Part shown: piece after piece, positions 4,256 through 63,423 of the stretch
How positions within the stretch are numbered: the stretch's first letter is position 1
How the letters are laid out: each line of letters begins with the position of its first letter
NCBI GenBank assembly: GCA_965231095.1
Contig: OZ246416.1
Location: 603,549-667,548 of the forward strand
DNA: 64,000 nt
Reading direction: 5' to 3'
Origin: an uncultured Gammaproteobacteria bacterium
Lineage (GTDB): Bacteria > Patescibacteriota > Patescibacteriia > XYB2-FULL-38-15
Notes under the pieces: model-generated
What the model was told of the DNA's origin: nothing
Seen by the model: only the letters and a program-made list of their open reading frames with translations
The model's database searches: none
Program-made: the position numbers and the translations under genes

Positions 4256-5363
4256 CTTGGTAAATTCGTAAAGTTTCTTCTGCTAGCCTCCCCCAATTAT
4301 ATTTTTTAACTTGCTCCAATCCTAATTTTATTAAATTTTCCCGTGTTGGCTCGTCTGTCCAAACAAATTTTATTTTTTCTATCATGTCCCGCTCATCTTT
4401 CGGATCAAAATAAATCGCGGCTTCACCATAAATTTCCGGAAGGCACGATGAGCTTGACGCGACCACCGGCAGGCCATAACTCATGGCTTCAAGGCCAGGC
4501 AGGCCGAATCCTTCCACAAACGACGGAAAAACATAAACCCGAGCATTGCGGTAAAGATCCGCCAAAATCGCTTCGGAAACAAAATCCGTGAAAATTATAT
4601 TTTTACCAATCTCCGTCTCCCATATTTCCTCCTTCATTCTTTTATAGAAATAATCTTCTTTGCCAACTAAAACCAGCTGGCAGTTTAAATTTAATTTAGG
4701 AAAAATTTTTAGCAGTCCTTCCAAATTTTTGTGCGGATAAGCATTGCCGACATAAAGAAGATACGGTTTTGTGATCCCAAATTTAGCTAAGTGCTTCCTC
4801 TCCGGCATTTTCAATTGGCCGTATTCCACTCCGTCACAAGCCTCGCGGGTCACCTCTATTTTTTCCGGATTTATTTTGAAAAATTTTACTAATTCTTTTT
4901 TTGTACATTCGGAAACGGTAATAACTTTTTTCGCCCGCCGGAGACCGAGGCCAATCACTATTCTGTACGCCAGATATTTTATTTTATAAAGTAATGGCCC
5001 AAGCGTTGTCGCCCGCGGTGTAGGAAATTGTAATAAAATCAGATCATGAATTGTCGCGACAAATTTTGTCGGACAAAAAATAGGAATGTTAAAGTGCGGA
5101 AAGTGGACAAGATCTAATTTTTCTTGCCAAATTACGAACGGCATTGCGACTTGTTCTTTTAAACTATACCAGGGATAATCGGCTAAAACTTTTTTGAAAT
5201 TGGAAAGTTTGGGAGTGTAGTAATCCCAGTTTTCTTTTCGTAAAAAAATTATGTATTCATTTTTTTTGTCTAACTTTTCCAGGTTTTCCACTAGCCGCTC
5301 CACATATCTGCCTAAACCCTTCCCAACTGGACCGAAAAAGCGCGCGTCTATTCCAATTCTCAT
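4239..5363 (-). CDS. Glycosyltransferase family 4 (GT-B fold).
   Basis: C-terminal motif EGFGLPGLEAMSYGLPVVASSSSCLPEIYGEAAIYFDP (the GT4 E-x7-E region). The N-terminus is MRIGIDARFF. The track ORF extends to 5429, but the conserved start is the internal Met whose start codon is at 5363. Confidence 0.8.
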   Translation of the reverse strand: MRIGIDARFFGPVGKGLGRYVERLVENLEKLDKKNEYIIFLRKENWDYYTPKLSNFKKVLADYPWYSLKEQVAMPFVIWQEKLDLVHFPHFNIPIFCPTKFVATIHDLILLQFPTPRATTLGPLLYKIKYLAYRIVIGLGLRRAKKVITVSECTKKELVKFFKINPEKIEVTREACDGVEYGQLKMPERKHLAKFGITKPYLLYVGNAYPHKNLEGLLKIFPKLNLNCQLVLVGKEDYFYKRMKEEIWETEIGKNIIFTDFVSEAILADLYRNARVYVFPSFVEGFGLPGLEAMSYGLPVVASSSSCLPEIYGEAAIYFDPKDERDMIEKIKFVWTDEPTRENLIKLGLEQVKKYNWGRLAEETLRIYQDAGKK

Positions 5364-5567
5364 GACGTGATAATTAAATAATAGTCTGCAGTCTGTATAA
5401 CTTTTTTTTCCACGTCTCGCCCCGTACAAAGTAAAGGTGTTTTTCTGTTTTACGCATCGCCTCTCGTTATAGATAATCGCTCCGCCGGAATTATCAATTT
5501 ACTTAAACTTTGTGTGGGGTCAATGCCTATCTTCATATACATTATTATAGCAAAAAAACGTCTACAA

Positions 5568-5590
5568 GTAAAAGAGGGCCGCAATGGCCC
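5568..5590 (-). terminator. Rho-independent terminator-like hairpin between the two GT4 genes.
   Basis: On the minus strand, AGAGGGCC-attgc-GGCCCTCT is a perfect 8-bp stem followed by TTTT. Confidence 0.4.
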
Positions 5591-5619
5591 TCTATCCTAA
5601 AACACTTATGCTAAAAACA

Positions 5620-6774
5620 CTAACTGATTAATAACAAAAATTGACGCGCACAATCCTCCCAATTGAATTTTTCCGCTTGCTTTTTTCCTTTTTCAATCAA
5701 GTTCGCCCGAAAATTTTCATTGGTCAAGCATTGCTCCATGGCTTTTGCCATTTCCGCCGGGTTATTTGGATCAACCAAGAACGCCGCCTCACCCATTACT
5801 TCCGGAAGAGATGAATTCGTGCTGACAACAACCGGTGTCCCGGCTCGGGCGGCCTCAAGCGGGGGAAATCCAAATCCTTCATAAAATGAAGGGTAAACAA
5901 AAAGCCGTGCCAATTTATAAAAATATTTTTTTTCTTCCGGCGCGATGTAATCTATAAATTTTATATCATCGCGCGCCGGACTTTTTTTTGCCCGCGCCAA
6001 AATTTTTTTATAAAGCCAGCCGCGCGGACCGACAATCAATAATTTTAGATTTACGATTTCAGATTTTTGATTTCCCCTCAAAATTTCAAAAGCGCGAACT
6101 AATCCTTCAATATTTTTTCTCGGCTCAAGCGTCCCTAAAAACAAAATAAAATTATTCGGCAAATTATATTTTTTTCTAATTTTATCAATTCCCAATTCAT
6201 CATTCACGATTTCTAATTCCCGTCCCACTCCGGAATAAATAACCCCCACTTTTTCCACCGGCACACCATATAATTTGACCAAATCATTTTTAGTATTTTC
6301 CGAAACAGAAATAATTTTGTCCGCGCCGCAAATTATCTTTTGGGGATTGACAAACCAATGCCACAGTCGCCGTTTCCAGGAAAAAAATCTTGGAAAAAAT
6401 TCAAAAGATAGATCATGAACCGTGATCATTTTTTTAACTCCGCGCGATAAAGCTATAAAATTTAGATTTGGAATAAAAAATAAATCAATTTTATCTTTTA
6501 GTAATATCATCTTATCAACTTTTGGCCACTTCAAAAATTTAAAACAAAAATTCAATAACTTATTTGGCCAACGAAATCCGCAAAGACGAACATTAGAATT
6601 TTTTTTCCACTCCCCCAGAAAGTCTTCCTCAACTTTTTTCCAAGAATTATAAAAAAGGAAATAATTATTTTCTTTATCAATACAAAAAAGAGCGTCGAGA
6701 ATCTGATAAGTATATTCTCCGACGCCGCTTCTTTCTTTTTCTAAAAGCGATCTGATGTCAACGCCGATATTCAT
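5620..6774 (-). CDS. Glycosyltransferase family 4.
   Basis: 384 aa. MNIGVDIRSL..., with C-terminal EGFGFPPLEAARAGTPVVVSTNSSLPEVMGEAAFLVDP. Confidence 0.8.
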   Translation of the reverse strand: MNIGVDIRSLLEKERSGVGEYTYQILDALFCIDKENNYFLFYNSWKKVEEDFLGEWKKNSNVRLCGFRWPNKLLNFCFKFLKWPKVDKMILLKDKIDLFFIPNLNFIALSRGVKKMITVHDLSFEFFPRFFSWKRRLWHWFVNPQKIICGADKIISVSENTKNDLVKLYGVPVEKVGVIYSGVGRELEIVNDELGIDKIRKKYNLPNNFILFLGTLEPRKNIEGLVRAFEILRGNQKSEIVNLKLLIVGPRGWLYKKILARAKKSPARDDIKFIDYIAPEEKKYFYKLARLFVYPSFYEGFGFPPLEAARAGTPVVVSTNSSLPEVMGEAAFLVDPNNPAEMAKAMEQCLTNENFRANLIEKGKKQAEKFNWEDCARQFLLLIS

Positions 6775-6844
6775 AAAAGTCTCTTGTAGCTTTGTATGCG
6801 GTATTTTGTATTTTCAATAAATGCCAGATACAAAACACTATATA

Positions 6845-7948
6845 CTAAACACGCTGCTCTAGCTCTCTCCAGCTATTTTCTATATAATTTTTTATTTTTT
6901 CCTTAAAGGCGCCCACATCAAACTGCGCCGCGTGCGCCCGAATTTCTTCCGGATTATATTCTTCCGGCTTGAATCTGATAATCGTATGCGCGAGCGACTC
7001 CCAGCTCTGATCCGGAAAAAAAGTTCCGGTTTTCCCCTCCACCACCGTTTCCGCCGCCCCACCCTTTGGGTAAGCAATCACCGGCCGCCCGGAAGCCATG
7101 GCCTCAATCACCATTAATCCAAAATCTTCTTCCTGCGGATGGACAAAGGCAATACACTTTCCATATAATTCCCTTTTCTCAACGTCCGAAATTTTTCCCA
7201 AAAATTCAATGTTAGCCTTTGCCATTTCTTTCAATTTTTCAAGTTCCGGACCCTCTCCAAAAATTTTTAAAGGAACGCCAAGTTTATTAAAAGCCTGAAT
7301 TACAAGATCAAATCTCTTATAAGGAACAAGCCGCCCGCCGGCCAAGTAATACCTTTTTTGCGCTTCAGAAATTTTAAATTGTGAAACGTCAACCGGCGGA
7401 TAAATTACGTCGCTGTCCTTTCCATAATATTTAGAAATTCTTTTTTGCACGGTTTTTGAATTGGCGATAAATTTATCAACCCGCTCGGCCGCCATCCTAT
7501 CCCACATTCTAAGGCGCGGCAGCATCAATGACACCGCCCTTTTTACAAGCGACCCATGCGATAATTCTTTTATATAAAGATGCGTGTCGGTCCAAAGATA
7601 TCTTGTCGGCGTATGGCAATAACAAATATGCAGCGCGTCCGGCCGCGTAATTACGCCCTTGGAAAGCGCGCTTGAGTTTGAAAGAACAACATCATAACCG
7701 TCAAGTTCATGCTTTTCCGTAGCAAGCGGCATCAGAGGCAAAAACCATTTAAAATTTTTTACTCCGCCGGGAATTTTTTGAATAAAAGATGTTTTAACAT
7801 TTTTCCCGTCAAACTCCTTGCCCATTTTTTTCTTATCATAAACCAGGGAGTAAAGCGGAGCCTCCGGAAAAATTTCTCGGAAAACCCTAAGCACTCTTTC
7901 CGCCCCTCCGTCTTGCGTCAAGTGATCGTGGACTAAAGCGATTTTCAT
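6845..7948 (-). CDS. Glycosyltransferase family 4.
   Basis: 367 aa. MKIALVHDHL..., with EDFGLMVIEAMASGRPVIAYPKGGAAETVVEGKTGTFF. Confidence 0.8.
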   Translation of the reverse strand: MKIALVHDHLTQDGGAERVLRVFREIFPEAPLYSLVYDKKKMGKEFDGKNVKTSFIQKIPGGVKNFKWFLPLMPLATEKHELDGYDVVLSNSSALSKGVITRPDALHICYCHTPTRYLWTDTHLYIKELSHGSLVKRAVSLMLPRLRMWDRMAAERVDKFIANSKTVQKRISKYYGKDSDVIYPPVDVSQFKISEAQKRYYLAGGRLVPYKRFDLVIQAFNKLGVPLKIFGEGPELEKLKEMAKANIEFLGKISDVEKRELYGKCIAFVHPQEEDFGLMVIEAMASGRPVIAYPKGGAAETVVEGKTGTFFPDQSWESLAHTIIRFKPEEYNPEEIRAHAAQFDVGAFKEKIKNYIENSWRELEQRV

Positions 7949-9378: not shown

Positions 9379-9411
9379 ATATATTAGGTAACAAATGTGA
9401 TCCCCTAAAAT

Positions 9412-9846
9412 TTACCCGAGTAACTATAAGCCGGATTCTGTATCTCGCAGTGATGCGAGACGGTAATCATCTATCTAGGATTTTGATTGCTCAAAATCTC
9501 GAGCGGCTATTTTTGGCCTTGCACCGGATAGGTGTTTTCCACGGCGCCTGTCACCAGGCTGTCCCGCGTGAGCTCTTACCTCACGATTTCAACCTTACCT
9601 CCGCCTTTCGGCGGATCGGCGGTGTATTTTCTGTTGCACTGTCCGTGGGCTTCATTAATTGATGTTCGATTAAGCTCTATCCGCCGCGTAAACGGCAAAT
9701 ATAGCACAAACAACAAAACTTACTCCCCGTCGCTGTTAGCGACTATCTCTCTTTCGGCTTTATGCCGAAACGGTGTCCGGACTTTCCTCTCTCTTTTCCC
9801 CGATTTTAAACGGAAAAATGAGAGCGATTACCCATTACTCGGATAA
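9412..9846 (-). ncRNA. rnpB: RNase P RNA, bacterial type.
   Basis: The minus strand carries the universally conserved P4 elements GAGAGGAAAGTCCGGAC (5' region) and ACAGAATCCGGCTTAT (3' region). The 5' and 3' ends can pair as P1 (CCGAGTAA / TTACTCGG). No protein ORF is present. Confidence 0.7.
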
Positions 9847-15332: not shown

Positions 15333-16076
15333 ATGGAAGAAAATTTCACGGAAGAATTTTCTAAAAAATGGTATAAAAAATGGTGGGGCGTTTTGATTCT
15401 TGTCACGGGCGGACTAATTTTAAGCCTTACGCTTGTGATTGGCGGGCAAGTTTATTTTTATTATCGCCAAATAAAAAACGGAAAACTGCCCCTGCCCAGC
15501 CAAATCTTATTTCAAAGATCAAGTACCGCGGAAGCGGCTGGCGGCGCGCCCGATCTTTCCAAATTAGATTCTCCCGATGAGCCGGCCTCATCAACCAACG
15601 CGCCAATAAAGGTTGTCGGATTTTTTGACTTTGAGTGTCCTTACTCCCGCGAAGCCGCAGACGCGATGCGCCAAACCCAAACCATCTATGGCGACAAAAT
15701 TAATTTTGTTTTTAGAAATTTCCCCTTAACTGATATCCACCAAAACTCCATGCTCGCGGCGAGCTCCGGCGAGTGCGCTCATGCCCAAGGAAAATTTTGG
15801 GAAATGAGTGATAAAATTTTTGGCGGTTCATCTCTTAGCCGGGAAAATTTTGAACTATATGCTTCGGAACTCGGTTTGGACGCGGCGCAATTTAAAAAAT
15901 GTTTGGACGGTTATCAGGGCAAGGGCGCGGTGCTAAAAGATACCGTGGACGGACAAGCTCTGGGAGTTATCGGAACCCCAACCTGGTTTATTAACGGTGA
16001 AAAAATTGAAGGTGTCCTCGCGGTCACAGATTTCAAAAAAATTATTGATTTTTTTTCAGCTAACAAAACTCCCTAA
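15333..16076 (+). CDS. DsbA-like thiol:disulfide oxidoreductase (thioredoxin fold), membrane anchored.
   Basis: 247 aa. N-terminal TM, a CPYS (CxxC) active site in FDFECPYSREA, and the cis-Pro region GTPTWFINGEKIEG. Confidence 0.75.
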   Translation: MEENFTEEFSKKWYKKWWGVLILVTGGLILSLTLVIGGQVYFYYRQIKNGKLPLPSQILFQRSSTAEAAGGAPDLSKLDSPDEPASSTNAPIKVVGFFDFECPYSREAADAMRQTQTIYGDKINFVFRNFPLTDIHQNSMLAASSGECAHAQGKFWEMSDKIFGGSSLSRENFELYASELGLDAAQFKKCLDGYQGKGAVLKDTVDGQALGVIGTPTWFINGEKIEGVLAVTDFKKIIDFFSANKTP

Positions 16077-18156: not shown

Positions 18157-18285
18157 ATGTCTAAACTCGACACAGTTTTAAAAGTTTTACCAAAAATATT
18201 TTTAGGCGTTTTGGTCACGCTCTTTGTTGTCCAGGTTGTCGGATTTTTTGTAATTTTTTATTTATCAAGTCAAGCCGTAAAATAA
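18157..18285 (+). CDS. Possible 42-aa single-TM small protein (below the ORF-track cut-off).
   Basis: ATG at 18157; MSKLDTVLKVLPKIFLGVLVTLFVVQVVGFFVIFYLSSQAVK; stop at 18283-18285. It lies between porA and the 603-aa gene. Confidence 0.25.
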   Translation: MSKLDTVLKVLPKIFLGVLVTLFVVQVVGFFVIFYLSSQAVK

Positions 18286-18295
18286 TTTTATAGTT

Positions 18296-20107
18296 ATGGC
18301 GCAAAAAATTATTAAAATTTTTCTGCTGGCAACGCTTGCTCTCGCGCTCCTCGTCTCCGCCAGTCCGGCTTTTGCCCAAACAGGTGAAGCCAACGCTCAA
18401 TGCTGGTCTAGTTCAGACTGCATGAAATATACGAAAGATTGCCGGGCTTGTTTTGAAGAGAGAGCGGACATCTGCGGCGAAAACCGCGGTTATTGTTACG
18501 CGAGGCCGGTTCCTGCAACTTTGGAAATTTCTCTTGGAGGATTGACTGATGTCTATGATCCGGCGCAATATATTTCCACTCTTTATCAATGGATGGTTTC
18601 CGTCACGGGAATTCTCGCCGGTATTATGATTATGATTGGCGGCCTTCTCTATCTCACAGCCGGCGGCGCGCCCGATCGCGTCTCTAATGCCAAAGAGTAT
18701 ATCTCGAGCGCTCTTGTTGGTTTGATGTTAGCGTTAACTTCTTATTTTATTTTACAAACCGTAAATCCGGCGCTCCTATCTTTAAAATTTCCCAAGGTTC
18801 CCTTGATTCAGGCCGTCGTTCCTCCTGGGGAATTTTGCGAAGATCTCGCAGAAAATCCTGACATACAAATTACCTCCTCAACTGGCGGAACAAAATGCGG
18901 TGATGTTGGAATTCCAAAAAGTATTTCCGGCGAATCAAATGTTCCCACAAAATGCGCTTACGGAAATTGTTCCAATCCAGAAGAAAGTTGCGAAATTAAC
19001 CCCGAATCGCTCGGTCCGGTAGCGGAATGCAAAAAAGTCGCGGGGACAAGATTGGATGTTTTTTTGGCAGAACGCCGGCAAAAATTTAACTACGCACCGA
19101 CCGCTACAACAAACCCGGCGGCCTGGGCCGCGGATCCCGCGATTCTTGCCGAAAAAGAAGAGATTACAAAAGTTTGCCAACAATGGACGCCTCGATCTCA
19201 AAATGGGATAATCTACCGCACTTACGCTACGGCCTCTTGTAATTTAATTTCTGGAATTGGCGGAGCGGATTTTTTAAAAAATTCCGGAATGCAAGTCGCC
19301 ATTTTCACGGGAGCGAGCAGTTTGTATAGCGGCGCAATTAGAGGCGCCCAGGCCAGGGCAGCGGGATCGACGGTCGGACAGGTTGTGGGCGGCGCCGAGG
19401 TTGGCCTCGGAGCCTGGGGAGTAAAATCGGCCGTTAGAGCCGTTATGAAGCACCCGGCCGTGGCTACTGTCTTAACGGCAATAATTGGTTCTGTTGCTAT
19501 TTCTGAAGAAGTAAATTGCGGCGCAAATTCCGCCCTGCGTGGAAACGCCGCTTGCGGTCTGGTCACCCTTGATTGTAACAGAATAACCAAATGTTCGGAT
19601 TATCCTAATGTTCAGATTAAAGCGGAGGAGGGGCCAATACCTTTGATTGAAATTGACCCCCGCGATTATTTAGGAATGAGTGGCAATGAAATAATTTCTG
19701 ATGTTTGCAAAGATAACCCTTGCGGTCTGCCATTTTCCTGCACAACTGGCGGCGGAGAAGATTTTAGTTTGGGGTGCACGGCTGGAAGCGAGGCAAAATG
19801 TCCGGCCGACGCACACAATGATATTTACAATGGCTTTATTCAGGGCCGTCAACAAAAAGGGCAACTATGCGAGAAAGACGCGGACTGCCAATTTGGAACG
19901 TGCAGCGGCAGTTCCGTCACTATAAATGATCTTCTTACCCCATGCGATCCGGAACATCCCGATTTTCGCAGTCGATATAACGAATCGACTGGCTGCACTT
20001 ATGGCATCTCACCCACACTTTTAGATTGCGGGATCCCTACCGAACAATATCGCCGTCAGGCAAATTTTTACAAGAGAGAAAATGTAACTCTTAGACATTG
20101 TCAATAA
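18296..20107 (+). CDS. Secreted or membrane protein. N-terminal pilin-like two-TM domain (same family as the 58.7-63.4 kb array) fused to a roughly 440-aa Cys-rich C-terminal region.
   Basis: 603 aa. Signal peptide ...SASPAFAQT. The core YQWMVSVTGILAGIMIMIGGLLYLTAGGAPDRVSNAKEYISSALVGLMLALTSYFIL matches the array consensus. It is followed by many Cys pairs (CAYGNCSNPEESCE, CSDYPNV, CTTGGGEDFSLGCTAGSEAKC...). The gene sits between porA and porB. Confidence 0.6.
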   Translation: MAQKIIKIFLLATLALALLVSASPAFAQTGEANAQCWSSSDCMKYTKDCRACFEERADICGENRGYCYARPVPATLEISLGGLTDVYDPAQYISTLYQWMVSVTGILAGIMIMIGGLLYLTAGGAPDRVSNAKEYISSALVGLMLALTSYFILQTVNPALLSLKFPKVPLIQAVVPPGEFCEDLAENPDIQITSSTGGTKCGDVGIPKSISGESNVPTKCAYGNCSNPEESCEINPESLGPVAECKKVAGTRLDVFLAERRQKFNYAPTATTNPAAWAADPAILAEKEEITKVCQQWTPRSQNGIIYRTYATASCNLISGIGGADFLKNSGMQVAIFTGASSLYSGAIRGAQARAAGSTVGQVVGGAEVGLGAWGVKSAVRAVMKHPAVATVLTAIIGSVAISEEVNCGANSALRGNAACGLVTLDCNRITKCSDYPNVQIKAEEGPIPLIEIDPRDYLGMSGNEIISDVCKDNPCGLPFSCTTGGGEDFSLGCTAGSEAKCPADAHNDIYNGFIQGRQQKGQLCEKDADCQFGTCSGSSVTINDLLTPCDPEHPDFRSRYNESTGCTYGISPTLLDCGIPTEQYRRQANFYKRENVTLRHCQ

Positions 20108-21035: not shown

Positions 21036-21058
21036 GACGGGCTCTGCCCGTCTTTTTT
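21036..21058 (+). terminator. Rho-independent terminator after porB.
   Basis: GACGGGC-tct-GCCCGTC followed by TTTTTT. Confidence 0.6.
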
Positions 21059-21076: not shown

Positions 21077-21105
21077 TTGACCGCTTTTCTGATTTGATGT
21101 ATACT
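21077..21105 (+). promoter_or_regulatory. Sigma70-like promoter upstream of uvrA.
   Basis: TTGACC (21077-21082), a 17-nt spacer, then TATACT (21100-21105). It lies 55 nt upstream of the uvrA ATG. Confidence 0.45.
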
Positions 21106-21158: not shown

Positions 21159-23936
21159 ATGCCAAACAAAATTGTAATAACCGGCGCGCGGGTCCACAAT
21201 TTAAAAAATGTTAGTGTGGAAATTCCCAAAAATAAATTTGTCGTTATCACCGGCCTCTCCGGCTCGGGAAAATCTTCTCTGGCTTTTGATACAATCTACG
21301 CCGAAGGCCAACGCCGTTACGCGGAAAGCCTTTCTTCTTACGCCCGGCAATTTTTAGGCGTGATGGACAAACCCGCGGTGGATGAAATCACCGGGCTTTC
21401 TCCAACAATCGCCATTGATCAGCGCACCGTTTCCCACAATCCCCGCTCCACGGTCGGCACCATCACGGAAATTTATGATTATCTCCGGCTTCTCTATTCC
21501 ACCGCCGGCATTCCGCACTGCCCAAAATGCGGCGTGCCCTTGGTTAAACAAACTTCCAAACAAATTTCCGAAAAAATTATAAAACTTTTCCCGGGAAAAG
21601 AAATTATTATCATCGCCCCGCTAAAAGACAGCCAAAATAATTTAGGGCGCGCTCTGGAAAAAATAGAAAGGGCGGGATATTCCCGCGTTAGAATCGATGG
21701 AGCCATTTATGATCTTGCCGCGGTTAAACATCAAAATTTTGGAGATAAAAAAATAAATTTGGAAGTGGTAATTGATAGAATTGTTGTTGACTCCAACCAA
21801 AAACAACTGACCAATATGGTTCTTACCGCCCTCGAACTCGGGGATGGCGTTGTCACTATTTTTGAACCATCTGCGGAGCGCGATTTAGTTTTCAGCCAAA
21901 TTTTTGTTTGTCCGAAATGCGGCTATGAACTTAAAGAACTGGAACTCCGAAGTTTTTCTTTTAACAGTCCTTACGGCGCCTGCCCAACTTGCTCTGGTTT
22001 GGGCACAACTTCAAAAATTGACCCGACGCTTGTTATCCCAAACCCTCGACTGACCCTGGCCGAAGGAGCTGTGAAACCCTGGGTTAAAATTTCCGGCGGG
22101 GCTTCAGGACAATTAAAATCTCTTGGCCTCTTGGCTCCAAAATACGGATTTTCTCTTGACACGCCCGTTAAAGATTTTAAAAAAGAACAACTAAACTACG
22201 TTCTCTATGGCATCCCAGAAACAGACTACGAGGGCGTTATTCCAAATCTTGAAAAAAAATATAAAGAAACAGATTCTGATTACGTCAGAAAAGAAATTGA
22301 AAATTACATGCGAACGGAAGTCTGCCCGAGCTGCCGCGGGGCGAGATTAAAACCGGAAGTGCTGGCTGTAACTTTTAATGGAAAATCCATTGCGGAACTT
22401 GCAGCAATGTCGGTCGGACAAATTGAAGAATTTTTGGGAAGCCTTGGCAGCAGGAAATCACCGCTTTCGGCCCGTGATCTTAAAATTTCTTCTTCAATCA
22501 CAAAAGAAATTTTAAACCGCATAAAAAATATTAATAATGTCGGCTTGGGGTATTTAACTTTGGACCGAGCCGTCGCGACACTTTCTGGCGGCGAGGCGCA
22601 ACGGCTGCGCTTGGCGAGCCAAATCGGTTCGTCGCTTTCCGGAATTATTTATGTTTTAGACGAACCGTCAATCGGCCTGCACTCACGCGATAACACAAAA
22701 CTTATTGAAACATTACAAAAATTAAAATCTCTTGATAACACCATTATTGTTGTTGAGCATGACGAGGCGACAATTCTCGCGGCTGATTATGTTTTGGATA
22801 TCGGGCCCGGCGCCGGAGAGTACGGCGGCGAAGTTGTAGGCCGCGGCACTCCGGCGGAAATTAAAAAAAATAAAAAATCTTTGACCGGACTTTATCTTTC
22901 CGGAAAACAAAAAATTGATGTTCCCAAAAATTATCGCAAAGGAAACGGAAAATTTTTAACCATCACGGGCGCCGCGGAACACAATTTGAAAAATATTGAT
23001 GTTAAAATTCCTCTGGGCAAATTTGTCTGCGTCACGGGCGTCTCCGGTTCGGGAAAATCAACTTTGATAACCGATATTTTGGGAAAATCTCTGACTCGCG
23101 CTTTTTATCACACAAAGGACTTACCCGGAAAACACAAAGAAATCAGGGGTATAAATTTATTGGACAAGGTGATTACGATTGACCAATCACCCATCGGCCG
23201 CACCCCGCGTTCAAACCCGGCAACCTATACCGGCGTTTTCACCTACATTCGCGATCTCTTCACGGAAAACCAGGAAGCAAAAATGAAAGGCTATGACGCG
23301 GGAAAATTCAGTTTTAATGTTAAGGGCGGCGGGCGGTGCGAAACCTGCGGCGGCGAAGGAGCGGTAAAAATTGAAATGCAATTTCTGCCCGATGTTTATG
23401 TTGAATGCGAAGAATGCCACGGCGCGCGCTATAATGCCGAGGCCCTAGAAATTCATTATAAAGGGAAAAACATCGCTGACATTTTAAACATGACCGTGCT
23501 TGAAGCAAGACAGTTTTTTAAAGACGTCCCGGCGGTTTATGAAAAGCTTCAAATTCTGGCAAATGTCGGGTTGGGTTATATGCGCCTCGGCCAGGCGGCG
23601 ACAACTCTCTCCGGCGGTGAAGCGCAAAGAATTAAACTGGCAACGGAACTCTCACGCCGCGCGACCGGAAAAACCCTTTATATTTTAGACGAACCTACGA
23701 CCGGCCTGCACTTTGATGATATCAAAAAACTCCTGGCGGTCTTAAATCAACTGGTTGACAAGGGAAATAGCGTTTTGATTATTGAACATAATCTTGATGT
23801 TATAAAATGCGCCGACTGGGTTTTGGATCTGGGGCCCGAAGGCGGAGAAGGCGGCGGATATCTTGTAGCAGAAGGCACGCCAAAAGATATCGCTAAATCC
23901 AAAAAATCTTACACCGGACAATATCTGAAAAAATGA
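21159..23936 (+). CDS. uvrA: Excinuclease ABC subunit A.
   Basis: 925 aa. Two ABC ATPase modules ([23 protein letters not shown]; [10 protein letters not shown]), ABC signature LSGGEAQR twice, and zinc-finger Cys clusters. Confidence 0.95.
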
Positions 23937-31387: not shown

Positions 31388-31497
<110 letters not shown>

Positions 31498-31548
31498 TCA
31501 AGCTAAAAACGCTTGAAATTTATTTTTGTATGTTTGCACAATTCTTGT

Positions 31549-34555
<3,007 letters not shown>

Positions 34556-34916
34556 ACAAGAATTGTTAAAACATACATTTTACAATTCTCATTTACTTTT
34601 TTGGTTCTCTTTCTTATGTTGGGTATTAAGATGCTCTTTTATTCAATTGTCAACGAACAATTTTTTTCTGTTTCTCGCCTCTCGTTTTATTTAGAGACCA
34701 GAGGCGGGAGCAAAAAATAATTTTAAATTTTTGGAAAAAGGACTAAAAAACCGCTCTTTCCGAGCGGCTTGGTACGACCAAAAAATAGGTTAGCCACTCG
34801 GGAACTTATAAGTTAAAACTTGTTTTACCATATTTTGCCCAATATCAGAGAAAAATTGTCAGGTGTAACTCTGGATAAAATGTGGACAACTTCCTCCGTT
34901 TTCTTAGTACATTAGT

Positions 34917-58718: not shown

Positions 58719-59147
58719 ATGCTTTTAAAACACAAAACCTTAATCACAATTATAATTGTTGGGTTTGGATTACTTGTCGCCCCCCCAACTTTTGCTTCCT
58801 GGCCGGCCACCCCGCTTTTGCCACCATGCACCACGGATGGCAATTGCGGTTTTAATGATTTTATTTTGCTCGGCGTCAATTTCACCAAAATGATTTTGGG
58901 TCTGGTCGGATCATTAGCTCTGCTTTTCTTTATTTATGGCGGCGTGATGTTTTTACTGGCCGGGGGAAAATCGGAAATGATTGAAAAGGGGAAAAAGATT
59001 ATTACCAATGCCGTGATTGGCGTCGCCATCGTGCTCGGCGCCTGGATAATCGTGAACTTTGCTATTGCCGCGCTTACCGGCACGCCGGTTAGTGATGTTA
59101 AAATTTTTGGCACGCAAGATTGGTGGCGAACTCCAGGGGAAGAATAA
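58719..59147 (+). CDS. Pilin-like paralog 1 (signal peptide + conserved two-TM C-terminal domain).
   Basis: 142 aa. Conserved core ...ILGLVGSLALLFFIYGGVMFLLAGGKSEMIEKGKKIITNAVIGVAIVLGAWIIVNFAI. Confidence 0.6.
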   Translation: MLLKHKTLITIIIVGFGLLVAPPTFASWPATPLLPPCTTDGNCGFNDFILLGVNFTKMILGLVGSLALLFFIYGGVMFLLAGGKSEMIEKGKKIITNAVIGVAIVLGAWIIVNFAIAALTGTPVSDVKIFGTQDWWRTPGEE

Positions 59148-59170
59148 TCTGAATTTCTAAAAAATAAAAT

Positions 59171-59797
59171 ATGAAAATCTTTAAAATTTTAGTTTTGGGT
59201 TTATTTGTTTTTTCGAGCTTCGCCTTTTTAATTCCAACAGCGCTGGCCTTGCGAACCTGCAGTTCCGGAACCGGCTGCGGACCGGGTGAAACTTGTGCCG
59301 AATTGCCCGCCGCAGACCAATGCGTTGACTCTTCAGGAGATAGAATTTACTACATTACCGGACGTTGTAGCGGCTATCCTTCTGTCGCTTGCCCCTCTGG
59401 ATTTACCTGTCAAACTATTCCTACCAGAGGATCTTATTGCATCACAAATGAAGCGGGAATGGCGTCTACAAGTTGTCCGGCAGGACAAGAGCTGGTAAAT
59501 GGTTCTTGCCAAGCAGCAAGCCAAGCCACCACCGGTCCGGTGGAATTTACCTCACCAATCGACGCCGTTTCCCCGACTCAAATTCTTGGTACGGTCATAA
59601 AAACCGTTTTGGGAATTCTCGGCGCGATTGCTCTCGCGATGTTTGTCTACGGCGGTTTTGTTTGGATGACTTCCGGCGGCAGCCCGGAGAAAATAAAAAC
59701 GGCGCGCACGACGCTCGTCTGGGCGGTGATTGGTATGGTTGTAATATTTTTAAGTTACGCCGCGGTTGATTTTGTCCTTTCAGCTTTTGGCGTTTAA
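59171..59797 (+). CDS. Pilin-like paralog 2 with a Cys-rich N-terminal ectodomain.
   Basis: 208 aa. Signal peptide; ten Cys in the variable region. Core ILGAIALAMFVYGGFVWMTSGGSPEKIKTARTTLVWAVIGMVVIFLSYAAVDFVL. Confidence 0.65.
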   Translation: MKIFKILVLGLFVFSSFAFLIPTALALRTCSSGTGCGPGETCAELPAADQCVDSSGDRIYYITGRCSGYPSVACPSGFTCQTIPTRGSYCITNEAGMASTSCPAGQELVNGSCQAASQATTGPVEFTSPIDAVSPTQILGTVIKTVLGILGAIALAMFVYGGFVWMTSGGSPEKIKTARTTLVWAVIGMVVIFLSYAAVDFVLSAFGV

Positions 59798-59800
59798 ACA

Positions 59801-60313
59801 ATGAAAAAAAATTTAACAAAAAGGAGTACGACTTTTTCCATCTGCTTGTTTTTAATTTTAAGCAGCTGGATTTTTATTTTTAGCAGCTCGCTAGCCGAGG
59901 CGACTTGCATTACAGGCGCTGAATGTCCCGCCGGACAAGTTCGCGGCGCCGGCCCTTGCCCTGATGCCGGACAAATAAATTGCGTTTCCGAGCCAACTTC
60001 TTCAACCTCTGAAACGACCGGTACTCCAGAAAAAGTAAAGTTAGAAAATCCCCTCGGCGGTACGGGAACAATCGGCGAGGTCACTTCCCCCACCAAACTT
60101 ATCGGAAATATTATAAAAACTATTTTAACGATTGTCGGCGCCTTGGCCCTCGCGATGTTTGTCTACGGCGGGTTCACCTGGCTCACCTCCTCCGGAAGTC
60201 CGGAGAAAGTTAAAAAAGGAAAGGATATTTTAATTTGGGCGGTCATTGGCCTGATAGTAATTTTTACAAGCTACACAGCGGTAGATTTTGTCTTAACCGC
60301 CTTGGGGGTTTAA
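59801..60313 (+). CDS. Pilin-like paralog 3 with a Cys-containing N-domain.
   Basis: 170 aa. Core IVGALALAMFVYGGFTWLTSSGSPEKVKKGKDILIWAVIGLIVIFTSYTAVDFVL. It starts 3 nt after the previous stop. Confidence 0.65.
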   Translation: MKKNLTKRSTTFSICLFLILSSWIFIFSSSLAEATCITGAECPAGQVRGAGPCPDAGQINCVSEPTSSTSETTGTPEKVKLENPLGGTGTIGEVTSPTKLIGNIIKTILTIVGALALAMFVYGGFTWLTSSGSPEKVKKGKDILIWAVIGLIVIFTSYTAVDFVLTALGV

Positions 60314-61183
60314 ATGAAAAAAAACTTTACGAAAATTTTTATCTGTCTCTTCGCGCTCTCTCTCGCTGGACTCATTACCGCACGCAATGCGGCGGCGGAA
60401 GAATTCGGAGCCTGCGAGTGCGTAGAAGATACCTCCATCACTGTCGGGGCTTGCAGCGAGTGCGCGACGGCCTGCGCAACTTCTTTTGAAGCTGAGGGCA
60501 GACCTTTTACCGTAAAGTCTTGTGAAAATTCCTCTGTCCCCGGCGCGAAAGAGTGTTTTTGTCATTTAATAACAGCTTCTATACGCCGCGAAGAATGCCG
60601 TATCGGCTGTGTTGGTTATACTTATAATTTTACTCCCGCGGCAGAGCCCGTGCCCGTTGACGAAAGAGATGCTTGCACCCGTCAAGAAGATTGCGTTGGG
60701 ACAGCCGGTGACTGCGGCGCGACTCGCTGTTTTTGTGACACCACGGCTAGTATTTGTCGATTTAAAAAAGACAGCGGCTCGGTTTGTTCGGGAAACTTTG
60801 AATGCAACTCAAATATTTGCACGTCTGTTCCTGGCAGAGAAGGAAAAACTTGTAAAGTCGGCGGGCTCACTCCTCCGGGCGAAGAGACTCCTGCGCCCAC
60901 CGGCGAAGAAGACGTTTTTCCGACTTATCAAATAAATTCTCCTATCGGCGAAGTTACTGGACCGCAACTTATCGGCCGAATTATTAAAGCAATCCTTGGC
61001 CTGGTCGGCGCCTTAGCGCTCGGAATGTTTGTCTACGGAGGGTTTACTTGGTTGACCTCGGCCGGCAGCCCTGATAAAATAAAGAAGGGCAAAGACATTT
61101 TAATCTGGGCGACAATTGGCCTCATCGTAATTTTTACAAGTTATACCTTGGTGGATTTTCTCCTGCGATCGTTTGGATTATAA
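60314..61183 (+). CDS. Pilin-like paralog 4 with a large Cys-rich N-terminal domain (more than 30 Cys).
   Basis: 289 aa. Core LVGALALGMFVYGGFTWLTSAGSPDKIKKGKDILIWATIGLIVIFTSYTLVDFLL. Confidence 0.65.
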   Translation: MKKNFTKIFICLFALSLAGLITARNAAAEEFGACECVEDTSITVGACSECATACATSFEAEGRPFTVKSCENSSVPGAKECFCHLITASIRREECRIGCVGYTYNFTPAAEPVPVDERDACTRQEDCVGTAGDCGATRCFCDTTASICRFKKDSGSVCSGNFECNSNICTSVPGREGKTCKVGGLTPPGEETPAPTGEEDVFPTYQINSPIGEVTGPQLIGRIIKAILGLVGALALGMFVYGGFTWLTSAGSPDKIKKGKDILIWATIGLIVIFTSYTLVDFLLRSFGL

Positions 61184-61223
61184 CCTTCCATTTTAAATGG
61201 AATCCCGAAAGGGGGTGAAGAAA

Positions 61224-61589
61224 ATGTTAAAAAAAGTATTTTTCTGTTTAACCATCTTGAGTCTTTTGACTCCAGTTGTGGTCTCCGCACAAAATGACAT
61301 CTTGGGCCTGAATGTCATTAACAATGCGAACATCGGCTTGCAAGCTTCAGATCCGAGAGCCGTGGCCGCGAGAATCATTAACGTGGCGTTGGGTTTCTTG
61401 GGTATTATCGCCGTGGTCATCGTCTTGTACGGTGGCTTCATGTGGATGACAGCAGCTGGTAATGAGGAAAGAATTTCCAAAGCAAAACAGATCTTGACCG
61501 CCGGTGTTATCGGCTTGGTCATTATCGTTATGGCTTGGGCAATCGCCTCTTATGTTGTGAAGACTTTGATGAACGTTACAAACACCTAA
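61224..61589 (+). CDS. Pilin-like paralog 5 (short form; codon usage and GC differ from its neighbours).
   Basis: Core FLGIIAVVIVLYGGFMWMTAAGNEERISKAKQILTAGVIGLVIIVMAWAIASYVV. The likely start is MLKKVFF at 61224, with a GGGGGTG SD-like element upstream; the track start is 61197. Confidence 0.6.
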   Translation: MLKKVFFCLTILSLLTPVVVSAQNDILGLNVINNANIGLQASDPRAVAARIINVALGFLGIIAVVIVLYGGFMWMTAAGNEERISKAKQILTAGVIGLVIIVMAWAIASYVVKTLMNVTNT

Positions 61590-61633
61590 AGATTATAATG
61601 GGGTGGGGTTAACTCCCCACCCCATTCTCGATT

Positions 61634-62056
61634 ATGTTAAAAATAGAAAAAGTAAAAATTTTAAAATTTTTTTGCGTCGCGGCAATACTCTTTATAATTT
61701 TTGGCGCAAACTTTGCTCTCGCCCAACCCGCGGATGAGGATACAAGTGACACAAGCGGCGTTCGCTCCGGACTTGGCGAAGCGGCAAATATCGGGGGGAT
61801 CCCCCAGACCGGCGGCGAAGAAGCTATCCCAAACTTGATTGGCAATATTATTATGGGTGCGCTTGGTTCGGTCGGCATTATCTTTTTAATTTTAATGATT
61901 GTCGGCGGAGTAATGTGGATGACCGCCTCGGGAAATGAAGAGCGGGTGACTAAAGCCAAAAGCTTGATTACAAACGCCGTGATTGGCATGGTCATTGTTT
62001 TTTCCGCTTACGCCATCACTTATTTTGTCACGGAAACTTTACTTAACACGAGATGA
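61634..62056 (+). CDS. Pilin-like paralog 6.
   Basis: 140 aa. Core ALGSVGIIFLILMIVGGVMWMTASGNEERVTKAKSLITNAVIGMVIVFSAYAITYFV. Confidence 0.65.
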   Translation: MLKIEKVKILKFFCVAAILFIIFGANFALAQPADEDTSDTSGVRSGLGEAANIGGIPQTGGEEAIPNLIGNIIMGALGSVGIIFLILMIVGGVMWMTASGNEERVTKAKSLITNAVIGMVIVFSAYAITYFVTETLLNTR

Positions 62057-62544
62057 AAAATTATAAAAAAATCTTGGCTGTTTTTCTTTTTCTGCTTGTC
62101 GGATTTTTTATTTTTTACGGAACAGCCTCTGCCTCCATTTTTGGCGGCCTTGATACGGCGCGCGAAACTGCCGGCTATTCAGAAGACACTAATATTTATT
62201 CCACCATCAGTCTGATAATTTCCGTCGCCCTTGGCTTTGTTGGCGTGGCTTTTTTAGGGCTCACGCTTTATGGCGGATTAATTTGGATGCTGGCCCGCGG
62301 CAATGAACAAGAAATTGAAAAAGCAAAAAGATTAATTGAAGCGGCGGTGATCGGTCTGGCGATTGTTTTTGCCGCTTACGCCATCACTTATTTTGTCACT
62401 GAAAAAATTCTTTCTTCTACCTCCGGCGGGGGAGAAGGATTCACTTGCGCTGAAGGTGAGGTTTCGTGTTCTTGCTCTGGTGACTCTTACCCCGAATCCC
62501 TTTGTGCTCCGCGCGCTGAAGATTGTGTTTGTACTTCTTTTTAA
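62053..62544 (+). CDS. Pilin-like paralog 7 with a C-terminal Cys-rich tail.
   Basis: 163 aa. Core ALGFVGVAFLGLTLYGGLIWMLARGNEQEIEKAKRLIEAAVIGLAIVFAAYAITYFV, then ...GFTCAEGEVSCSCSGDSYPESLCAPRAEDCVCTSF. Confidence 0.65.
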   Translation: MKNYKKILAVFLFLLVGFFIFYGTASASIFGGLDTARETAGYSEDTNIYSTISLIISVALGFVGVAFLGLTLYGGLIWMLARGNEQEIEKAKRLIEAAVIGLAIVFAAYAITYFVTEKILSSTSGGGEGFTCAEGEVSCSCSGDSYPESLCAPRAEDCVCTSF

Positions 62545-62568
62545 ATTAAATTTTCAAAAATAATTACT

Positions 62569-63006
62569 ATGAAATCTTTTAAAAAAAATTTTATTTTTGC
62601 CTGTTTTACTTTAGCGCTTCTCACCCTGGCTATGCCCCTTATTACGAATGCCGTGGCCGCCCCCGGCGACACTTTGAATAGATTGAAAGAAGTCGGCGGC
62701 GAAGCTTACGGCACCGGCGAGGAGCCGCCAAAAGATGTGACGGAAATTGTCGGTGGAGTAATTAAAACCGGCTTGAGTATTATGGGCGTAGTCGCCGCGA
62801 TTTTAATAATTTATGCCGGCTATCTTTGGATGACAGGTCGCGGGAAAGAAGAAAGAATCAACAAGGCCAAAGAAACTTTGGAGGCGGCAATTATTGGTTT
62901 AATTATTATTCTGGCGGCCTACGCCATTACTTATTTTGTGGTGGATAGATTGATGCAGGCCTCCTCGGGCTCGCCATCCGGCGCTACACCGCCCCCTACC
63001 CCATAA
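62569..63006 (+). CDS. Pilin-like paralog 8.
   Basis: 145 aa. Core GLSIMGVVAAILIIYAGYLWMTGRGKEERINKAKETLEAAIIGLIIILAAYAITYFV. Confidence 0.65.
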   Translation: MKSFKKNFIFACFTLALLTLAMPLITNAVAAPGDTLNRLKEVGGEAYGTGEEPPKDVTEIVGGVIKTGLSIMGVVAAILIIYAGYLWMTGRGKEERINKAKETLEAAIIGLIIILAAYAITYFVVDRLMQASSGSPSGATPPPTP

Positions 63007-63018
63007 TTTAACAAAACT

Positions 63019-63423
63019 ATGAAGACTATTTCTAAAAAAATTTTCGTCTCTGCTCTGCTAAGTCTAATTCTCGTCATTTTTGCTCTGCCGGTCTTTGCTC
63101 AAGTAGGAGAATTACAAAATTTTGGTCGAGCGGCTTATGGCGAAGCTGAAGCGCAATATCAGGAAACCCAAGGACCCCTCGTCATTGCTGGCAAAGTTAT
63201 CAACATCGCCCTGGGAGCTGTCGGGGTAATTGTAGTTATCTTATTTGTTTACAGCGGATTTCTCTGGATGACCGCCGCGGGCAACACGGAAAAAATTGAA
63301 AAAGCAAAAAAAATTCTTGGTAACGCAATTGTTGGGACAATGATTGTCATTATGGCTTACGCCATTTCCTATTTTGTTATCAATCAATTATTAAAAGCTG
63401 CCGGCACACCAGTCACGCCGTAA
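63019..63423 (+). CDS. Pilin-like paralog 9.
   Basis: 134 aa. Core ALGAVGVIVVILFVYSGFLWMTAAGNTEKIEKAKKILGNAIVGTMIVIMAYAISYFV. Confidence 0.65.
   Translation: MKTISKKIFVSALLSLILVIFALPVFAQVGELQNFGRAAYGEAEAQYQETQGPLVIAGKVINIALGAVGVIVVILFVYSGFLWMTAAGNTEKIEKAKKILGNAIVGTMIVIMAYAISYFVINQLLKAAGTPVTP

Follow-up and report, generated by a model that had tools for sequence, protein, structure and literature searches.

Why should the gene for a pilin-type surface protein stand between two subunit genes of pyruvate:ferredoxin oxidoreductase (POR), an enzyme of central metabolism? This question is raised by a 64,000-nt stretch of contig OZ246416.1 (the window in the following), in which a gene of 603 codons lies between porA and porB. 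A first-pass annotation had read this gene as a fusion of a pilin core with a Cys-rich region, inserted into the por operon, and had offered two explanations, i.e., that the arrangement links expression of a surface structure to fermentative redox metabolism, or that it is a selfish insertion. The analysis reported here makes it rather probable that the gene encodes an exported, pilin-anchored, Cys-rich surface protein, which was fixed between porA and porB in ancient times and is co-expressed with the POR operon.

Gene order in the window was taken from the listing of open reading frames (ORFs) and domain assignments from Pfam; positions given without a locus name are window coordinates, and the features are collected in Table 1. 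The order porG-porD-porA-peptide gene-603-aa gene-porB was found as annotated, and the 603-aa gene is indeed a pilin-core and Cys-rich fusion within the por operon, with a match to PF18895 and 30 Cys in total. All four POR subunits are encoded in the canonical order G-D-A-B. Four-subunit POR operons of the type porGDAB are known from Thermotoga, Pyrococcus and Helicobacter, and the window resembles them in the number of subunits, their order, and the cluster-ligand Cys and the GDG thiamine pyrophosphate (TPP) motif of PorB (C20, C23, C48, C212 and GDG are invariant in the alignment, with 80-90% identity among clade members). It differs from them by the 42-aa peptide gene and the 603-aa gene, which together separate porA from porB by 1,971 nt, so that the four por genes are not contiguous.

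The spacers are 4 nt between the dsbA-like gene and porG, 17 nt between porA and the peptide gene, 10 nt between the peptide gene and the 603-aa gene, and 3 nt between the latter and porB. The gaps of 3-4 nt that had been annotated are thus correct for the junction with porB, but other gaps reach 17 nt. In a consensus scan no terminator-like or strong promoter-like site was found around the inserted genes. The top-ranked terminator-like site of the + strand within 14.7-24.1 kb is a hairpin followed by a T-run directly downstream of porB, and it is the likely end of a transcription unit that extends from dsbA to porB. Because the gaps measure 3-17 nt and the sole strong terminator-like site follows porB, dsbA, porG, porD, porA, the peptide gene, the 603-aa gene and porB are predicted to form one operon; the layout is consistent with the co-transcription proposed in the first-pass annotation. 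Shine-Dalgarno-like motifs, looked for as a sign of translational coupling, were not found ahead of any gene of the unit, and Rfam gave no regulatory RNA in the operon.

The arrangement is not peculiar to the window. For six homologues with 36-100% identity the contigs were looked up, and in six of six the gene lay between porA and porB, preceded by dsbA-porG-porD-porA and followed by porB-uvrA; a seventh homologue (P0029) also lies between porA and porB. In addition, a PorB alignment was searched against one genome per GTDB species, and the window genes were mapped onto the 80 best loci (numbered with the prefix L). About 66 loci have no gene between porA and porB; they come from Planctomycetota, Chloroflexota, Proteobacteria, Nitrospirota, Omnitrophota, archaea and others, and the gene order of the window had thus rightly been called unusual. 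In contrast, every Patescibacteria locus with dsbA...uvrA synteny has a porA-porB gap of 1.4-4.8 kb. A pilin-core Cys-rich ORF was found in the gap of L012-15, L018-21 and L089, whose PorB proteins are 52-91% identical to that of the window (52-67% for L015, L019, L020, L021 and L089). ORF inspection revealed that the gap gene always encodes a signal peptide, a short Cys-containing segment, a two-helix core and a Cys-rich C-terminal region, at very different lengths (Table 1).

A metagenome scan with the core alignment of the distant clade added three lineages (L092, L093, L098) with the order dsbA-porGDA-pilin-porB, in which the pilin has 277-343 aa and a Cys-rich tail and porB is followed by further pilin fusions. 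The arrangement is thereby present in at least 18 distinct genomes from two NCBI candidate phyla of the Parcubacteria group, Falkowbacteria and Kuenenbacteria included, and wherever a locus reaches far enough, porG is preceded by a dsbA-like gene. The pilin-fusion gene between porA and porB is an old, lineage-wide fixture of Patescibacteria. Relatives therefore carry the insertion universally, which the first-pass annotation had named, in combination with a housekeeping annotation, as a refutation of its view; only half of this applies, since no homologue bears a housekeeping annotation, the source names being "pilin" or "hypothetical".

A word-indexed search of 5.8 billion proteins retrieved 21 full-length homologues with 34-84% identity, all from Patescibacteria-type metagenome-assembled genomes (MAGs). 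Within an alignment of 18 sequences, conservation is highest in the pilin core (aa 85-167), whose mean identity is 81%, compared to 28-38% in the distal ectodomain. The 18 homologues have 17 invariant Cys in common, and their Cys counts range from 26 to 38 and are nearly always even. The ratio of nonsynonymous to synonymous substitution rates (dN/dS) was 0.088 for aa 314-603 of the 603-aa gene in comparison to L011, the closest relative whose DNA was available, while it was 0.066 for porB and 0.045 for uvrA. In comparison to L002, the dN of the 603-aa protein was 0.34 versus 0.05-0.11 for the neighbouring genes, the ectodomain diverging 3-5 times faster. The GC content at third codon positions (GC3, 0.427) and the codon-usage distance (0.18) are like those of housekeeping genes. 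The GC content is slightly raised in the middle of the gene (0.48-0.53), coinciding with a Gly/Ala-rich segment. No direct repeats flanking the gene and no transposase or integrase within 15.0-21.2 kb were found. The intact ORF of 603 codons and a dN/dS of about 0.09 show that the gene is real and not a chance ORF, as had been annotated. Selection and composition together mark the gene as native and functional; it is kept by purifying selection, and its distal domain evolves fast.

The pilin assignment is based on a match of residues 92-155 to PF18895 (T4SS_pilin, VirB2-like) with an E-value of 2.9e-9 and 37.3 bits, compared to a gathering score of 26.6; it spans profile positions 8-70 of 71. 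TrbC/VirB2 (PF04956) was not matched by the 603-aa protein at E<=0.1. Hydropathy analysis gave an N-terminal peak at residues 1-27 and two strong hydrophobic helices at about residues 96-124 and 135-157, which are separated by the loop TAGGAPDRVSNAK. According to the alignment an equivalent signal-peptide-type N-terminus is present in all family members, and following the AXA rule signal peptidase would cleave at AFA/Q. Removal of the signal peptide would leave the mature N-terminus and a 6-Cys module outside the cell. The first transmembrane helix (TM1) would then run inward, the loop of about 12 residues would be cytoplasmic, the second (TM2) would return outward, and the C-terminal domain of 440 aa with 24 Cys would again be outside. 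In VirB2 and TraA both termini face out and the loop is oriented towards the pilus lumen or the cytoplasm, and the predicted two-TM topology agrees with this. A third TM at residues 388-406 was considered and rejected: its Kyte-Doolittle (KD) hydropathy of 1.4-1.6 is marginal, it is not conserved in homologues, and it would put 16 conserved Cys into the cytoplasm.

The Cys are distributed over two regions, with six at residues 36-67 and 24 at residues 181-602, and the annotated Cys-rich region of about 440 aa behind the core was thus confirmed. In the N-terminal module C60 and C67 are invariant, and C36, C42 and C52 are kept in at least 90% of the 18 homologues; in the C-terminal region 15 of the 24 are invariant. 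The latter region (aa 168-603) consists of a juxtamembrane FCEDL/CGD Cys module, a Gly/Ala-rich low-confidence stretch at aa 321-405, and distal Cys-rich parts, which include the invariant motif G..C....DC..G.C at aa 522-536. The even Cys counts and the adjoining gene for a thiol-disulfide oxidoreductase suggest that the ectodomain is disulfide-bonded. It matched no Pfam family, its conserved module gave no meaningful sequence-profile match to the PDB, and no fold match was obtained; an exhaustive HMMER search with the ectodomain as query yielded no more than its own family with 10 related clusters, and the passenger domain has no enzyme signature. With Foldseek the hairpin retrieved the archaeal conjugation pilin 8dfu, an insignificant match (E 3.4).

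The genome also contains an array of nine short VirB2-like pilin genes (Table 1). It is a typical array of nine genes, which allowed a comparison of both types within one genome. In one study (PMC12102498, Microb Genom 2025) VirB2-like pilins are described as widespread in Patescibacteria, with occurrence in 1,948 assemblies and 441 arrays, and a pilin array as essential in a cultivated epibiont; its passages on PF18895 and pilins do not mention an association with por. The 603-aa protein and the array pilins share the PF18895 family, the Sec signal peptide, the two helices and a short GG...AK loop (TSGGSPEKIK and TAAGNEERISKAK in the array), in the same layout. They differ in length, as array pilins (about 130-290 aa) end 5-45 residues after TM2, whereas the 603-aa protein continues for 440 residues as a C-terminal passenger. 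PF04956 was reached by two array pilins with 18-20 bits, below the cutoff of 27.9. The first-pass annotation had equated the core of the 603-aa protein with the cores of the array; this was correct for the Pfam family, but a neighbour-joining tree of the cores of about 82 residues cleanly separated the nine array pilins from a long-form group, and thus the 603-aa core belongs to a distinct subfamily with a clade of its own. Its gene lies outside the array and not near genes of a type IV secretion system (T4SS), its neighbours being por, dsbA and uvrA.

The long-form group comprises all por-embedded genes, the genes following porB in L092, L093 and L098, and the genes following dsbA in loci that lack por. 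Its motifs are AQYI..Y.Y before TM1 and NPxLxxL after TM2, with FCE[DE][LI] and more Cys behind the latter. Each por-embedded member is Cys-rich, with 14-55 Cys, and lacks an enzyme signature, and some contain the G..C....DC..G.C module; distant por-embedded relatives (L021) gave no more than sub-threshold matches to Dickkopf_N and the EB module. The post-porB and dsbA-linked members carry NlpC/P60/Amidase_5, lysozyme-like SLT_3, VanY or Peptidase_M15_4 domains. In T4SS of the Gram-positive type, membrane-anchored VirB1-like cell-wall hydrolases such as PrgK or TcpG are held by a single N-terminal TM helix. The long-form paralogues with NlpC/P60, Amidase_5, VanY or Peptidase_M15_4 domains have this logic of anchor plus passenger in common with them; the window protein differs by the lack of an enzyme signature and by a VirB2-like hairpin as anchor. 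The hydrolase fusions may represent the missing VirB1-like or host-wall-attacking functions of Patescibacteria. A literature search did not find the link between por and pilins, the long-form fusion subfamily, its dsbA linkage or the embedding between porA and porB, which is no proof of novelty.

Some array pilins of the window also have additional Cys-rich parts. Cys-rich N-terminal extensions are present in arr2, arr3 and arr4 (59171-61183), arr4 having 21 Cys in about 200 aa, and a Cys-rich C-terminal tail is present in arr7 (62053-62544). Cys-rich decoration of VirB2-like pilins is therefore common in this genome.

The second recurrent partner is the dsbA-like gene at the head of the unit. 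In three independent loci without por (L091, L094/95, L101) dsbA is directly followed by genes for pilin-VanY, pilin-M15 or long pilin fusions and then by radA. Because dsbA and pilin fusions co-occur without por, the conserved pair is dsbA-pilin and not pilin-POR; the recurrent functional neighbourhood is dsbA with long-form pilin fusions, among which the por genes are interspersed in a single large lineage. MdbA-like oxidoreductases are enriched in the candidate phyla radiation (CPR); folding of type IV pilins has been proposed as their role, and CxxC is conserved in 92% of the CPR MdbA-like family (bioRxiv 10.1101/335083). The loci described here resemble the MdbA/DsbA-VKOR pilin folding systems of Actinobacteria in that a gene for a membrane-anchored thioredoxin-fold protein lies beside exported Cys-rich pilin-type genes, with or without por. 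In contrast to the CPR proposal, the genes at issue encode VirB2-like fusions, and in contrast to the CxxC of the family the proteins of the window clade have CPYS; no VKOR gene adjoins the dsbA-like gene in the window. An alignment with 12 orthologues, in which an N-terminal TM helix is visible, placed this CxxS active site near aa 100-103. CPYS was found in the window, L002, L003, L004 and L018, and CSFS, CPFS or CSKS in L007, L009 and L021, the monothiol site CSKS of L021 being independent of the window clade; CxxC is kept in L015, L019, L020, L091 and L094. With CxxS, isomerase activity or the formation of mixed disulfides would be expected rather than classical oxidase activity.

The favoured explanation combines these results as follows. 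The 603-aa ORF is a functional gene, its product would be an exported membrane protein, and the pilin hairpin of the latter would serve as the anchor or pilus-incorporation module for a passenger, which is Cys-rich here and a peptidoglycan hydrolase in the paralogues. One long-form gene would have been fixed between porA and porB in the ancestor shared by a broad lineage of the Parcubacteria type, to which at least Falkowbacteria and Kuenenbacteria belong, and dsbA-porG-porD-porA-(peptide)-pilin fusion-porB would have been kept as one unit since then. The product would be a surface or host-contact protein that is stabilised by disulfides and whose distal domain evolves fast; by analogy, and in line with what has been suggested for VirB2-like pilins of Patescibacteria (PMC12102498), the most plausible role of this domain is to make contact with a host cell or the environment. 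The placement would give it the expression level of an essential fermentative operon and not a catalytic role in POR. Most likely the relation to POR is one of co-expression only, without a catalytic link, as the analysis found no feature that indicates a physical or biochemical link to POR; the proposed link of the surface structure to redox metabolism would then also be a matter of co-expression. Several points weigh against this explanation. Surface exposure and co-transcription are predicted from sequence, and a role as adhesin or in host contact is argued by analogy only. The AlphaFold2 (AF2) model of the protein is weak, with a mean predicted local distance difference test (pLDDT) of 60.9, and the ectodomain has no recognisable fold or family. 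No T4SS domain (VirB4, VirB6) was found in the scanned large ORFs of the window. Because of its CPYS site the DsbA-like protein would not be a classical disulfide oxidase, which weakens the idea that it oxidises the 603-aa protein. Lastly, in the short-alignment tree the embedded cores cluster by lineage, with paralogues of the same genome, and not by position. If true, for which this tree is weak evidence, this would mean turnover of paralogues at a constant porA/porB slot, which is poorly explained by a frozen accident and could point to a por-related constraint.

Such a frozen accident is possible, but we consider it improbable. A pilin fusion from a neighbouring dsbA-pilin cluster would have been duplicated or transposed once into the spacer, its co-expression would have no adaptive meaning, and it would have persisted because precise excision is improbable in small genomes with low recombination. 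L092, L093 and L098, with pilin fusions on both sides of porB, indeed place the por operon within a pilin neighbourhood; the same operon tolerates an unrelated insertion in L003 and L004 (described below), and neither Shine-Dalgarno motifs nor other coupling signals are visible. However, the site is occupied in all of at least 18 genomes, although the sequence turns over rapidly and the copy number changes there, which suggests that relocation or loss is selected against. This alternative differs from the favoured explanation only in denying a benefit of co-expression, and the sequence data do not separate the two. A functional coupling to POR is unlikely: the pilin fusion, possibly together with the 42-aa peptide, would be a POR accessory such as a membrane tether that localises the enzyme, or it would form one redox module with POR and the dsbA-like gene, by which the thiol-disulfide state of this surface protein may depend on ferredoxin or pyruvate metabolism. 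The porA/porB junction is occupied without exception even where PorB has diverged to 52% identity, and the occupants look replaceable or duplicable (two in L089; cores clustering with same-genome paralogues), and therefore the slot rather than a particular gene may be conserved. It is nevertheless doubtful that the slot as such was selected, with the protein and the CxxS DsbA-like protein tied to POR for tethering the enzyme or for making host-contact output proportional to fermentative flux. The spacing of 3 nt to porB and the thiol-disulfide oxidoreductase gene at the head of the unit would fit a coupling, and in Actinomyces pilin folding is reportedly linked to the metabolic redox state via MdbA, VKOR and the electron transport chain. 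But only about 12 residues are predicted to be cytoplasmic, and their sequence (TAGGxPxRVSNAK) is a generic PF18895 loop shared with the array pilins. Four-subunit POR does without such a partner in the about 66 other loci, and dsbA and pilin fusions occur together without por. A route for electrons across the membrane is ruled out, as the TM helices and the loop of the 603-aa protein contain no Cys and no cofactor motif, the protein has no CxxCH motif, and established redox potentials of thiol/disulfide couples are far too positive to reduce ferredoxin.

The two remaining alternatives fare much worse. It is highly improbable that a recent selfish or mobile insertion, or horizontally acquired cargo, interrupts the por operon, as the first-pass annotation had allowed. 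The gene does break a porA-porB pair that is contiguous elsewhere, and its GC content is slightly higher in the middle, but this GC bump falls on the Gly/Ala-rich segment, GC3 and codon usage are housekeeping-like, repeats, transposase and integrase are absent from the 15.0-21.2 kb region, and dN/dS is about 0.09. Above all, the junction is identical in every recovered Patescibacteria locus of that synteny, and the selfish reading is refuted by this conserved synteny. A spurious or decaying ORF, i.e., an annotation artefact or a pseudogene remnant, might be suspected as no function is known and the sources label homologues hypothetical; it is refuted by the intact 603 codons, the 21 full-length homologues with their near-invariant core and 17 invariant Cys, and the purifying selection.

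Several further observations were made on the por loci. The 42-aa single-TM peptide encoded upstream of the 603-aa gene matched no Pfam family. With tblastn it was found with 68-86% identity at the same position in L002-L006, L009, L012-14 and L018, and it is conserved in the close clade only; in comparison to L002 its dN was 0.10 and its dS 0.97, and thus it looks constrained. An extra gene of the bAvd/23S_rRNA_IVP family lies between porD and porA in two relatives only, L003 and L004. Runs of 9-nt tandem repeats (ATCCTAAGG-like) adjoin this gene at either side, and a similar 9-nt run lies inside porB (L003 8154-8212), where PorB has a 10-residue insertion. This bAvd-like insertion looks like a small cassette type, the second and independent one in the por operon. 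As the bAvd genes prompted the idea of a target of a diversity-generating retroelement, template/variable direct repeats were looked for; none were found in L003, L004 and the window region, and the idea was rejected.

L017, from a MAG labelled Saccharibacteria, has the only uninterrupted por operon (3960-6933) in which PorB identity is fairly high (61%); its neighbours are topA, archease, rtcB and enolase, and neither dsbA nor a pilin gene lies close by. If L017 truly belongs to Patescibacteria, it marks the outer boundary of the insertion. L014, L019 and L020 have the Patescibacteria synteny (dsbA-porGDA-pilin-porB-uvrA), yet they are titled "uncultured Gammaproteobacteria bacterium", and these bins are probably mislabelled. 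Outside the por region, the window encodes another large probable surface protein of 1,168 aa with five Lamin-tail domains and a PKD domain (36640-40146). It further contains a 23S rRNA on the - strand (31388-34557, 3,013 nt matched to a model of 2,925 positions), a 5S rRNA and a bacterial class A RNase P RNA (9411-9843, - strand); 16S rRNA is not in the window.

Table 1. Features of the por region and the pilin array of the window, and of the comparison loci. Positions of the comparison loci are those within the respective locus.
Feature	Position	Strand	Basis or remark
DsbA/MdbA-like membrane-anchored thioredoxin-fold protein, 247 aa, first gene of the unit	15333..16076	+	Pfam Thioredoxin_4 E 3.2e-20, DSBA E 4.2e-17
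porG, POR gamma subunit, 205 aa	16081..16698	+	Pfam PF01558 POR, E 2.5e-41
porD, POR delta subunit, 2x[4Fe-4S] ferredoxin-like, 94 aa	16706..16990	+	Pfam Fer4 families, best E 5.1e-13
porA, POR alpha subunit, 381 aa	16994..18139	+	Pfam POR_N E 3.3e-67, PFOR_II E 9.5e-20
Gene for 42-aa single-TM peptide	18157..18285	+	ORF
603-aa gene: predicted Sec signal peptide, 6-Cys N-terminal knot, VirB2-like two-helix pilin core, 440-aa Cys-rich ectodomain	18296..20107	+	ORF, PF18895, 21 full-length homologues
Predicted signal peptide, aa 1-27: K-rich n-region, hydrophobic core, A-F-A/Q motif	18296..18376	+	Sequence and hydropathy
Predicted N-terminal extracytoplasmic 6-Cys module (C36, C42, C49, C52, C60, C67)	18401..18496	+	Cys positions
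Pilin core, aa 85-167: TM1, short loop TAGG.P.RVSNAK, TM2, NPALL motif	18548..18796	+	PF18895, family alignment
Predicted extracytoplasmic region, aa 168-603	18797..20104	+	24 Cys
porB, POR beta subunit, TPP and [4Fe-4S] binding, 299 aa	20111..21010	+	Pfam TPP_enzyme_C E 1.9e-21
Terminator-like hairpin (7 bp stem, 6 GC pairs), then TTTTTT	21036..21052	+	Consensus scan
Promoter-like site for uvrA	21077-21105		Consensus scan
uvrA	21159-23936	+	ORF
Nine short VirB2-like pilin genes, 130-289 aa (comparison set outside the operon)	58719..63423	+	All match PF18895, E 1e-7 to 8e-14
L015, Falkowbacteria RIFOXYA2: embedded gene, 452 aa			
L019, labelled Gammaproteobacteria: embedded gene, 462 aa			
L020, labelled Gammaproteobacteria: embedded gene, 810 aa			
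L021, Patescibacteria group bacterium: embedded gene, 841 aa			
L089, Kuenenbacteria MAG: tandem embedded genes, 821 aa and 720 aa	1276-3741; 3815-5977		
L003, bAvd-like cassette	repeats 3863-3932, 4616-4683; gene 4274-4642		
L004, bAvd-like cassette	repeats 3828-3924, 4562-4640		
Pilin core and peptidoglycan-hydrolase fusions	L092 2878-5223; L093 3997-6403; L098 4075-5151; L094 3526-5478; L091 1110-3495; L101 1314-5194		Directly after porB or dsbA

Patescibacteria are host-attached and have tiny genomes, and VirB2-like pilins are among the few gene sets that have been shown to be essential for this lifestyle (PMC12102498). The results define a separate class of long-form pilins with Cys-rich or cell-wall-hydrolase passengers, which is tied to the gene for an MdbA-like oxidoreductase, and in at least two candidate phyla one member of this class is locked in the operon of POR, the main fermentative enzyme. 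The locus offers a clean synteny marker for the lineage, its product is a candidate surface or host-contact protein with constitutive expression, and it is a test case for the question whether gene position replaces regulation in reduced genomes. If a coupling to POR were functional, central metabolism and cell-surface biology would be connected in a new way, and if the slot itself were the object of selection, energy metabolism and episymbiotic attachment would have a built-in coupling in organisms with almost no regulators. If the coupling is not functional, the locus is an instructive example of operon "hitch-hiking".

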